NCBI RefSeq assembly: GCF_024223415.1
Contig: NZ_CP100508.1
Length of the DNA stretch: 2,313 bases
Direction: 5' to 3' (one strand)
Source of the DNA: Escherichia coli
GTDB lineage: Bacteria; Pseudomonadota; Gammaproteobacteria; Enterobacterales; Enterobacteriaceae
Every line of letters begins with the position of its first letter. Position 1 is the first letter of the stretch. The translations under genes and the position numbers were made by a program. Shown one piece after another: positions 637 to 2,160 of this stretch. The notes beneath the pieces were generated by a model. The model saw nothing but the letters and a program-made list of their open reading frames with translations. It was not told the origin of the DNA and did not search any database.

Positions 637-1134
637 ATGAACATTACTGAAAGAACGGATAGCAAGAAAAAAGTTTTAAGACAAAATATTACTGAGGTTA
701 TAGATAGAGAAACTGGAAACGTAACACAAGAAATAACCGATATAACAGTTCAATTTCCACAAGAACCTGCGTATGTGAAAATTTATATTGATAATTTATG
801 TGCTGTCACAAAAGCACCTGATTCTCTAAAAGATGTTTTATTTTTAATTCTTAGGAAATTGGATTATGACGGATATATTGCATTATCAACTAGATACCGT
901 AAGGAGATCTGTAAATTATTGGGAATAAAAGACGGAACATTACGTAACAGATTGTATTCATTATCAAAAATGGGGATTATTGCTAGTTGTGGCGGTAATG
1001 AATATCAGGCAAACCCTAATTTATTTGCTCGTGGTGAATGGAAAAAAATAATTGAACAGCGTCGCGAGTTTGAAATGAGAATTAAATATTCACCTAACGG
1101 TGAAACTATTATAACAACCGAAGAAATAAAATAA
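637..1134 (+). CDS. Putative plasmid replication initiator, small single winged-helix protein, RepL-like (165 aa)
   Basis: Intact ATG(637)..TAA(1132-1134) ORF from the six-frame track. AAAGG Shine-Dalgarno at 625-629, 7 nt before the ATG. Central segment DVLFLILRKLDYDGYIALSTRYRKEICKLLGIKDGTLRNRLYSLSKMGII reads as a winged helix-turn-helix. Overall size and layout (YVKIYI hydrophobic block, HTH, C-terminal NPNLFARGEWKK) resemble the RepL family (Pfam PF05732) as I recall it; this is from memory, not a search. Lies directly downstream of 22-bp tandem iterons. AT-rich codon usage matches the surrounding module. Confidence 0.7.
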   Translation: MNITERTDSKKKVLRQNITEVIDRETGNVTQEITDITVQFPQEPAYVKIYIDNLCAVTKAPDSLKDVLFLILRKLDYDGYIALSTRYRKEICKLLGIKDGTLRNRLYSLSKMGIIASCGGNEYQANPNLFARGEWKKIIEQRREFEMRIKYSPNGETIITTEEIK

Positions 1135-1143
1135 TGCGCACCT

Positions 1144-1173
1144 AAATAAGGTCTTTTTAAAAAGACCTTATTT
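1144..1173. terminator. Candidate bidirectional intrinsic terminator between convergent rep and RHH genes (perfect 30-bp palindrome)
   Basis: AAATAAGGTCTTTTT (1144-1158) is the exact reverse complement of AAAAAGACCTTATTT (1159-1173). It starts 10 bp after the rep stop codon and overlaps the RHH gene stop codon (1168-1170). The hairpin is AU-rich with a weak U-tract, so termination efficiency is uncertain. Confidence 0.5.
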
Positions 1174-1593
1174 GAATAAATCCGAACCTGGATATTTATT
1201 TTTATGTAGCCTTTTTATTATTTTTATTTCATCCTTTATTAAATCCATTTCATTATATATATCAGAAATTCGCTTCGTTACTATTTTCATTTCATCGCAA
1301 AGTAAAATTATTTTATGCATCACCTCGAGGTACTCTTTATCCTTCGGCCGCTTTCCCTTATCAAATAATTTTTTCTGCATCCGACCAAGTCGGATTAATT
1401 CATATAAATACCTGGAAGGTACGCGCTGTTTTATTTCATTATTTAAACTTGCCGTCCTGATATATTCTGAAATTGTCAGTCCTTCGTTCTTCGCTCGCCG
1501 TCTGATTTCGCTTGCAAGTCTGTTATTTACTCTAAGGGTGATAACCTTAGTTCTCTGCCGTACTTCTGAACCACTACGTTTATTTTTAGCCAT
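1168..1593 (-). CDS. Ribbon-helix-helix domain protein, MobC/MbeC-like relaxosome accessory protein or CopG-like plasmid regulator (141 aa from ATG at 1593; the track ORF 1168..1692 uses an upstream GTG)
   Basis: Minus-strand ORF ending in TAA (complement of 1168-1170). N-terminal KVITLRVNNRLASEIRRRAKNEGLTISEYIRTASLN matches the RHH pattern (beta-strand, helix, G, helix with S.SEYIR) typical of MobC/MbeC/CopG proteins. C-terminal half is K/E-rich and helical. Start at ATG 1593 preferred: GGAGAG Shine-Dalgarno lies 8 nt upstream on the minus strand (complement of 1602-1607), whereas the 33-codon extension to GTG 1692 is GC-richer than the gene body and has no properly spaced RBS. Confidence 0.65.
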   Translation of the reverse strand: MAKNKRSGSEVRQRTKVITLRVNNRLASEIRRRAKNEGLTISEYIRTASLNNEIKQRVPSRYLYELIRLGRMQKKLFDKGKRPKDKEYLEVMHKIILLCDEMKIVTKRISDIYNEMDLIKDEIKIIKRLHKNKYPGSDLFK

Positions 1594-1662
1594 CGCAATG
1601 ACTCTCCATTTTGCACGTTTGGGGTGTCGGGGCTTGCCCTGACAGGAGGTATTCTCATGCAA

Positions 1663-1690
1663 GCGAATGTATTCGCGGTATGACGAATAC
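1663..1690 (-). promoter_or_regulatory. Inverted-repeat cluster upstream of the RHH gene (candidate operator)
   Basis: GCGAAT (1663-1668) / ATTCGC (1671-1676) form a 6-bp inverted repeat with a 2-nt spacer. GTATTCG (1669-1675) / CGAATAC (1684-1690) form an overlapping 7-bp inverted repeat with an 8-nt spacer. Located 70-100 bp upstream of ATG 1593 on the minus strand. RHH proteins commonly autoregulate through such repeats, but no clean -35/-10 pair was found. Confidence 0.3.
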
Positions 1691-2160
1691 ACATCCTATC
1701 CCATTTTCCGCTGCAACTTTTCAACGAAAATAAAATACCGCGTCGTAACCTAGTATTTCTGATACAAAAAAATGATGCTTCATTCAATATTATTTATACA
1801 GATTTTAAAAATTATTGATTGTTATTTAATAAATAACACCGAATTAATTGATGTCTTTGTTGTCTGTCGTTTGTAGATTATTAGAGGAATAAAGATTAGA
1901 TCTTCTTGGTTATATAATCCATTGCCTGTTGGTAATGCGGGATTCGTCCAGAGAGCAGGAGGCAAAAGAGCAAGATGGTAGCATATGCATAAAATATAAC
2001 TATGTGAGTTATTGATATCGCGTTTATATATTAAAAATATAACTTAACGTCGCTCCTAATCTTTATTTCATCCTGGCAATGGGAGCATTAATCCCCGTGC
2101 AGTGCTCCGCCAGCTGCTGACAACCTCGACATATAACCATCGATACGATAGAACATCAGG

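Follow-up and report, generated by a model that had tools for sequence, protein, structure and literature searches.

On the evidence of its sequence, the stretch from position 1594 to 1692 of the window (the whole DNA analysed, 2,313 nt), continuing to approximately position 1702, is a transfer origin (oriT) belonging to the IncI-complex (R64) type, and the adjoining minus-strand gene for an RHH protein is a nikA/mobA gene which, judging by its homologues, starts at ATG 1593 and gives a protein of 141 aa. The initial annotation had met this gene as an open reading frame beginning at GTG 1692, and had inferred that translation begins at ATG 1593 and that the 33-codon extension upstream of it is not translated; this is supported by the N-termini of homologues, by protein family models and by conservation of the extension of a kind typical for DNA. 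We hold the combined reading, in which the gene starts at ATG 1593 and the extension is an IncI-complex-type oriT, with high confidence. It settles the annotation of the gene as 141 aa from ATG 1593, with the database versions of 172 to 204 aa being over-extensions into the oriT. There is nothing conceptually new in the module, as relaxase-less plasmids with nikA and oriT have been described since 2017: a small plasmid without a relaxase that has nikA and an R64-type oriT is a known combination, here on a replicon family of which our literature search found no description, and the same search found no experiment on this plasmid family.

The window (positions 1-2313) is a complete, circular cryptic E. 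coli plasmid encoding RepL and a NikA/MobA-type RHH protein; over its full length it is 99.7% identical to other E. coli plasmids of 2,313 bp, among them pPK8275-2.3kb, which has replicon type Col(MG828). An AT-rich module (approximately 400-2060) holds repL (637-1134, plus strand) and the RHH gene in convergent orientation, and a segment with 60% GC and no annotated gene runs from 2061-2313 into 1-370. Approximately 450 bp of this GC-rich segment are common to hundreds of E. coli plasmids of about 1.5 kb (85-89% identity), which have few or no annotated genes, and the segment may be the actual Col(MG828)-type replicon, alongside repL. The nikA-oriT region was present in 51 of the 5,426 complete RefSeq E. 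coli genomes (approximately 1%). The plasmid family is typed as non-mobilizable by MOB-suite in PLSDB (e.g. NZ_CP080170.1, OY754451.1, NZ_CP005932.1 and relatives), a label carried by 39 of 60 records among the listed PLSDB matches to the leader region.

The RHH gene occupies positions 1168-1593 of the minus strand (426 nt, start codon ATG at 1593-1591), and by homology its product is a NikA/MobA relaxosome accessory protein: it scores 56.3 bits with the Pfam NikA-like model PF21983 (cut-off 27) and 95.3 bits with the NCBIfam MobA equivalog NF041264 (cut-off 80), while its RHH domain is homologous to the solved R64 NikA(1-51), with phmmer matching residues 6-51 of the chain in PDB 2ba3 (E = 1.8e-6). 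The C-terminus of the 141-aa protein is approximately 30 residues longer than that of R64 NikA (110 aa) or of the NikA of plasmid L004 (107 aa), and a Salmonella homologue (P0035, 148 aa) is likewise long. This C-terminal tail (window 1168-1299) is among the least conserved parts of nikA, with 73-86% nucleotide identity between lineages.

Read along the plus strand, the oriT comprises a short inverted repeat, GGGGTGTCGGGGC-TT-GCCCTGACA (1621-1644, 9 bp with one mismatch), a long imperfect inverted repeat (1649-1690, with a 17-bp stem, a 4-nt loop and one bulge) and a nick-region motif, CATCCTAT (1692-1699). In R64 the oriT lies directly upstream of nikA and has two sets of repeats, of 17 and 8 bp, for recognition (PMC3817090), and the short repeat of the window is the counterpart of these '8-bp repeats'. 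The conserved block begins 39 nt before ATG 1593 (26-39 nt in other lineages). In an alignment of 14 oriT types, no variation was seen at positions 2-12 of the GGGGTGTCGGGGC block or anywhere in GCCCTGAC, and the same short-repeat block is found outside this alignment in the R64-type conjugative plasmid L007, our stand-in for R64, the accession of which (AP005147) is absent from PLSDB; residues 6-51 of the L007 NikA are identical to those of R64 NikA. When folded as DNA, the long repeat forms 17 pairs (-10.4 kcal/mol, z = -5.0), and a single nucleotide separates its end from CATCCTAT. All 14 oriT types have a hairpin of 14-18 bp at the same position, ending 1-2 nt before CATCCTG or CATCTTG and with arm sequences that differ between types, and the retention of the hairpin despite differing arms is covariation in all but formal count; the MAFFT alignment puts the left arm of the window one column out of register at the bulge, and each sequence was folded separately. 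By analogy with R64, the nick-proximal arm (1672-1690) is presumed to be the equivalent of the NikA-binding 'repeat A'. The suggestion in the initial annotation that the leader could hold regulatory structure thus stands as far as the presence of structure is concerned, but this structure consists of oriT inverted repeats acting as DNA and not primarily of an RNA leader, and the oriT extends approximately 10 bp beyond the right-hand end first given for the leader, through the nick motif at 1692-1699.

MOBP relaxases have the nick consensus (C/T)ATCCTG(C/T), preceded by an inverted repeat, and need its core ATCCTG for cleavage in vitro (PMC3772185). All 12 aligned siblings and most of the other oriT types contain CATCCTGT, an exact match to this consensus, while the window sequence CATCCTAT matches it at 7 of 8 positions, the mismatch being the base adjoining the predicted nick. 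The position of this nick (1698|1699) is predicted solely by homology to the MOBP consensus, and the spacing between repeat and nick is not uniform across the family (L007 differs). The mismatched base is an A at 1698 on the plus strand (position -1 relative to the predicted nick, inside the ATCCTG core), where relatives have G, so that the window reads CATCCTA versus CATCCTG in the relatives examined, with CATCTTG or TATCTTG in three oriT copies. The equivalent of position 1698 is a G in 12/12 family loci, 13/13 other oriT types and 19/19 metagenome matches, and a 41-mer with A at 1698 had no match in any PLSDB or RefSeq E. coli record. The G-to-A change also converts CAGGAT into a better -10-like sequence, TAGGAT, on the nikA strand.

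It is conceivable, and to be taken seriously without being the reading that we favour, that this is an oriT by descent which in this copy is dead or crippled through the change at 1698, leaving the plasmid with vertical maintenance only, or that the A is a sequencing error. Invariance of the G in all other oriT copies examined, the private nature of the A allele and the requirement of MOBP relaxases for the ATCCTG core in vitro (PMC3772185) argue for a loss of function, but natural oriTs tolerate C-to-T at position -3 (CATCTTG, in L024 and L020), which indicates some flexibility; as for an error, the window differs from the nearest record at six further positions, which are scattered and give no hint of poor sequence quality. 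We put forward only tentatively that the plasmid is a natural nick-site mutant, in which the G-to-A change would either abolish mobilisation of an otherwise intact nikA-oriT plasmid or shift which relaxase cuts it.

Related oriT sequence was found in 2,754 PLSDB plasmids, 1,576 of which are typed as conjugative. Two conjugative plasmids, L007 and L025, show the same order and spacing directly upstream of nikA-nikB, and a third, the pESI-like L022, shows them upstream of a nikA-like ORF. The element also occurs without an adjacent nikA (L019-L021, L023, L024 and L026-L037), sometimes as two inverted copies, and therefore cannot be merely the leader of nikA. The tiny plasmids L016, L019, L020 and L024 have two inversely oriented oriT copies, with L016 also having its own nikA, and we take L019, L020 and L024 to be likely pBuzz-type plasmids (our own assignment).

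A reading in which the stretch is not a transfer origin and serves mainly to regulate nikA as RNA leader or operator, via mRNA hairpins or autorepression by NikA, is in our view unlikely. The hairpin does form also when 1700-1575 is folded as RNA (-33.8 kcal/mol, z = -2.4), autoregulation is described for RHH accessory proteins such as RA3 MobC (PMC4175270), and L007 and L025 have a TATAAT shortly upstream of the oriT (with TTGACC before it in L007), so that the oriT there would be transcribed as nikA leader, but an exclusive role as RNA or operator fails on the copies of the same element without a downstream nikA, some of them inverted pairs. The presence of a MOBP nick motif at constant spacing from the hairpin and the homology to the R64 region published as oriT (PMC3817090) likewise argue for a transfer origin. 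No promoter was found upstream in this plasmid: a consensus scan of 1100-2100 and a lenient -35/-10 scan of the nikA strand from 2060 to 1594 located no σ70-like nikA promoter, the latter giving only weak AT-rich matches far upstream. A search of the whole window against Rfam 15 (E <= 1) gave only a chance snoRNA match elsewhere, and no cis-regulatory RNA family over the leader. Autoregulation is possible as an added role beside transfer.

With the stretch read as an oriT, a transfer mechanism can be modelled on R64 and RP4, and this applies to binding, nicking, the identity of the helper and the activity of the copy with A at 1698; the nick position and NikA footprint of R64 are taken as background, in part from secondary citations. 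Dimers of the plasmid's own NikA would bind the nick-proximal arm (1672-1690) and recruit a MOBP relaxase of the NikB type, which an I-complex conjugative plasmid in the same cell would provide in trans, and this relaxase would cut the plus strand after the G of CATCCTG|T (1698|1699). The cut strand would be transferred 5' to 3', and nikA would therefore enter the recipient last, while termination and recircularisation would be served by the distal arm of the long repeat together with the short repeat, GGGGTGTCGGGGC/GCCCTGACA. Possession of an own nikA fits with repeat arms (the presumed NikA site) that are lineage-specific, as opposed to the nick motif and short repeat, which are common to the lineages. 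The wording of the nick region adjoining the repeat, CATCCTG|TCCC, is that of L025 (IncI-gamma/K1) and L022, whereas in the R64-type L007 the nick-like motif (AGCCTG|T in our reading) is 9 nt further from the repeat, and our guess is therefore that the helper plasmid is B/O/K/Z-like.

With regard to the start codon, we confirmed the ORF from GTG 1692 (minus strand 1168-1692, 174 aa) with ATG 1593 as the next in-frame ATG, and its first 33 residues are MYSSYREYIRLHENTSCQGKPRHPKRAKWRVIA, exactly as described in the initial annotation. In our reading the extension (1594-1692, minus strand) is untranslated and consists of a ribosome-binding spacer (1594-1620) and most of the oriT. The A at 1698 changes a minus-strand CAG to TAG (1698-1696), which closes the frame just upstream of GTG 1692, and it is because of this TAG alone that the ORF appears to start there; in siblings the frame runs further upstream. 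A ribosome binding site had been described as well placed for ATG 1593, and a Shine-Dalgarno GGAG is indeed present (1607-1604, minus strand), with 10 nt between it and the ATG. Pairing of this GGAG with the anti-Shine-Dalgarno sequence gives -6.4 kcal/mol, a value reached by only 4.6% of minus-strand positions, versus -4.0 kcal/mol for GTG 1692, where an AGGA is just 1 nt from the codon; the site for ATG 1593 is thus decent and not ideal. GGAG or GAGG was found 6-11 nt upstream of the nikA start in every lineage compared, with the spacer itself not being conserved.

The protein homologue search with the 174-aa ORF returned nearly only the immediate family and one homologue with 45% identity, and the N-termini of distant NikA proteins were gathered via DNA searches. 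When R64 NikA (PDB 2ba3) is aligned with the long ORF, its residues 6-51 pair with ORF residues 39-84, and ATG 1593 therefore corresponds to M1 of NikA. The 45% identical Salmonella protein P0035 starts with MAAKNKRSGS, and this protein and the L004, R64-type and IncK-type NikA (40-47% identical) all have at most 8 residues before the (K/R)RSGS/KKS motif. Similarly, position 1 of the MobA model corresponds to residue 12 of the ATG form, versus residues 10-13 in homologues and residue 45 in the GTG form. PGAP uses ATG 1593 in all but one of the examined RefSeq records annotating the gene (the exception being a 172-aa call in L015), and most RefSeq matches have no feature over 1594-1760. Versions predicted by gene callers measure 141, 172, 174, 175, 182 (in OY754451), 191 and 204 aa, and there are several such lengths because siblings differ in how far upstream the frame stays open (33 to 58 or more codons).

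The initial annotation had also pointed to homologues as the place to look for the extension, and here the outcome is divided: close relatives do keep the peptide, with 24/33 residues identical in the 2.18-kb lineage (L005, L014, L015), since what is conserved is the DNA, as a site acting in cis, whereas distant homologues start at the position of ATG 1593. The core at 1620-1692 is 93% identical to the 2.18-kb lineage versus approximately 75% for nikA, and the 26 bp adjoining ATG 1593 are poorly conserved between the 2.3-kb and 2.18-kb lineages. Substitutions relative to the divergent lineage are distributed over the three codon positions as 4/5/3 in the extension and 24/20/59 in the gene body (binomial P = 0.025), while with only 12 substitutions in the extension the Fisher tests are weak alone (P = 0.06 for codon position, P = 0.10 for synonymous versus nonsynonymous changes). 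Depending on the lineage, the most conserved block, CCCCGACACC, is offset by 0, 1 or 2 (modulo 3) from the nikA start, and in L025 (typed IncI-gamma/K1) there is an in-frame stop codon inside the oriT, 10 codons upstream of the nikA start. An open frame of 33 codons is unremarkable, with 22% of shuffled leaders being open in that frame, and there is a long ORF from GTG 1692 only because this frame happens to be open across the oriT DNA. That the leader is GC-richer than the gene was noted correctly at the outset (51.5% for 1594-1692, versus 33.8% for the gene body at 1168-1593, 31% for repL and 31% for 1693-2060), and only 1% of the 99-nt windows in the AT-rich module (400-2060) reach its GC content; the leader is GC-richer because it is a conserved, sequence-constrained module common to conjugative plasmids of approximately 50% GC.

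A true start at GTG 1692, or use of both isoforms with the oriT DNA doubling as coding sequence for the 33 residues, is very unlikely: the frame is open for at least 33 codons in every examined member of the 2.3-kb and 2.18-kb lineages, long forms stand in some annotations (172 aa by PGAP in L015, 182 aa in OY754451) and are common among predicted proteins, and there is a weak GGGA/AGGA upstream of GTG 1692, but the long forms come from gene callers and have no experimental weight, the AGGA has a spacing of only 1 nt, all distant homologues (P0035, L004, R64-type and IncK-type NikA) start at the ATG position and are without extension, the conserved oriT DNA is in other frames or interrupted by stops in other lineages, the substitutions in the extension show no third-position bias, open frames arise readily in shuffled leaders, and how far upstream the ORF reaches varies from sibling to sibling, its limit being set here by a private point change.

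Compared with R64 and the I-complex (B/O, K and Z), the window has the same order of nick region, long repeat, GGGGTGTCGGGGC/GCCCTGAC repeat, Shine-Dalgarno sequence and nikA, and transcription of nikA likewise leads away from the nick. The conserved block is nearly identical in the two, while the window NikA is 47% identical to the R64 type and the repeat arms read GTATTC.../...GAATAC with a bulge, versus GTAATTG.../...CAATTAC in the R64 type. In contrast to these conjugative plasmids, the window plasmid is without the nikB relaxase gene and the transfer genes, and it therefore requires a helper plasmid. For the pCERC7 type we took the 3.1-kb ColE1-like plasmid L004 as representative, an assignment of our own. 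L004 is 77% identical to the window over 1620-1701, in a match just outside its annotated gene, and its nikA starts at the same relative position. It differs in replicon (RNAI/RNAII with Rop in L004 and the pCERC7 group, versus RepL and a Col(MG828)-type segment in the window), in the length of the long repeat (20 bp in L004 and the pCERC7 group, versus 17 bp and imperfect in the window), and in NikA, with the window protein being 42% identical to that of L004 and longer.

The pCERC7/NTP16/pU302S group, with its 'pEC34A-type' oriT, is presented in PMC9282650 as following the same strategy, i.e. a relaxase-less small plasmid with its own NikA and an R64-like oriT directly upstream. PMC9282650 also describes small plasmids with nikA and an R64-like oriT but no relaxase, and cites Moran & Hall 2017 for the mobilisation of NTP16 by R64. 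According to PMC11389934, pCERC7 and pBuzz acquired their oriTs from R64 and a B/O plasmid. The oriT-only plasmids of the pBuzz type have the same oriT architecture and nick motif as the window (Moran & Hall 2019, as cited in PMC11389934), but are presented there as having two inversely oriented oriTs and no nikA, whereas the window plasmid has one oriT and its own nikA. With regard to RP4 (IncP), the window family matches the MOBP consensus and has the inverted repeat directly 5' on the nicked strand (PMC3772185), whereas there is no sequence similarity to the RP4 oriT outside the nick core, and the accessory protein of RP4 is TraJ and not NikA.

The common 2.2-3.1-kb E. coli plasmids considered 'cryptic, non-mobilizable' may thus be mobilisable, as they contain a complete I-complex-type nikA-oriT module, and standard typing (MOB-suite in PLSDB) misses this module. 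This 2.2-3.1-kb plasmid family probably hitch-hikes on IncI1/B/O/K/Z plasmids.

Some further features were observed in the plasmids compared and in the remainder of the window. In L007, a 23-nt stretch that includes the long-repeat arm on the nikA side (CACGCGACGCTATTACAATT...) is found a second time, in direct orientation, upstream of the nick region (449-472 and 517-540), and a promoter-like TTGACC...TATAAT pair overlaps the nick-like motif. The human-gut metagenome contig L040 (3829-3851 and its left flank) has the window-type long repeat and nick region, with the short-repeat block replaced by unrelated sequence; the long repeat marks the breakpoint with its left edge, a pattern suggestive of recombination within the oriT. 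In the window, tandem 19-bp direct repeats, GATACACCTGTAACGTGT(A/G), are located approximately 90 bp upstream of repL (506-524 and 528-546, with a partial copy at approximately 491-502 and a period of 22 bp), and these look like iterons. Finally, a perfect 30-bp palindrome, AAATAAGGTCTTTTTAAAAAGACCTTATTT, lies at 1144-1173 between the convergent repL and nikA genes and overlaps the nikA stop codon; the consensus promoter and terminator scan of 1100-2100, which found nothing, did not flag it, and it is probably a bidirectional terminator.
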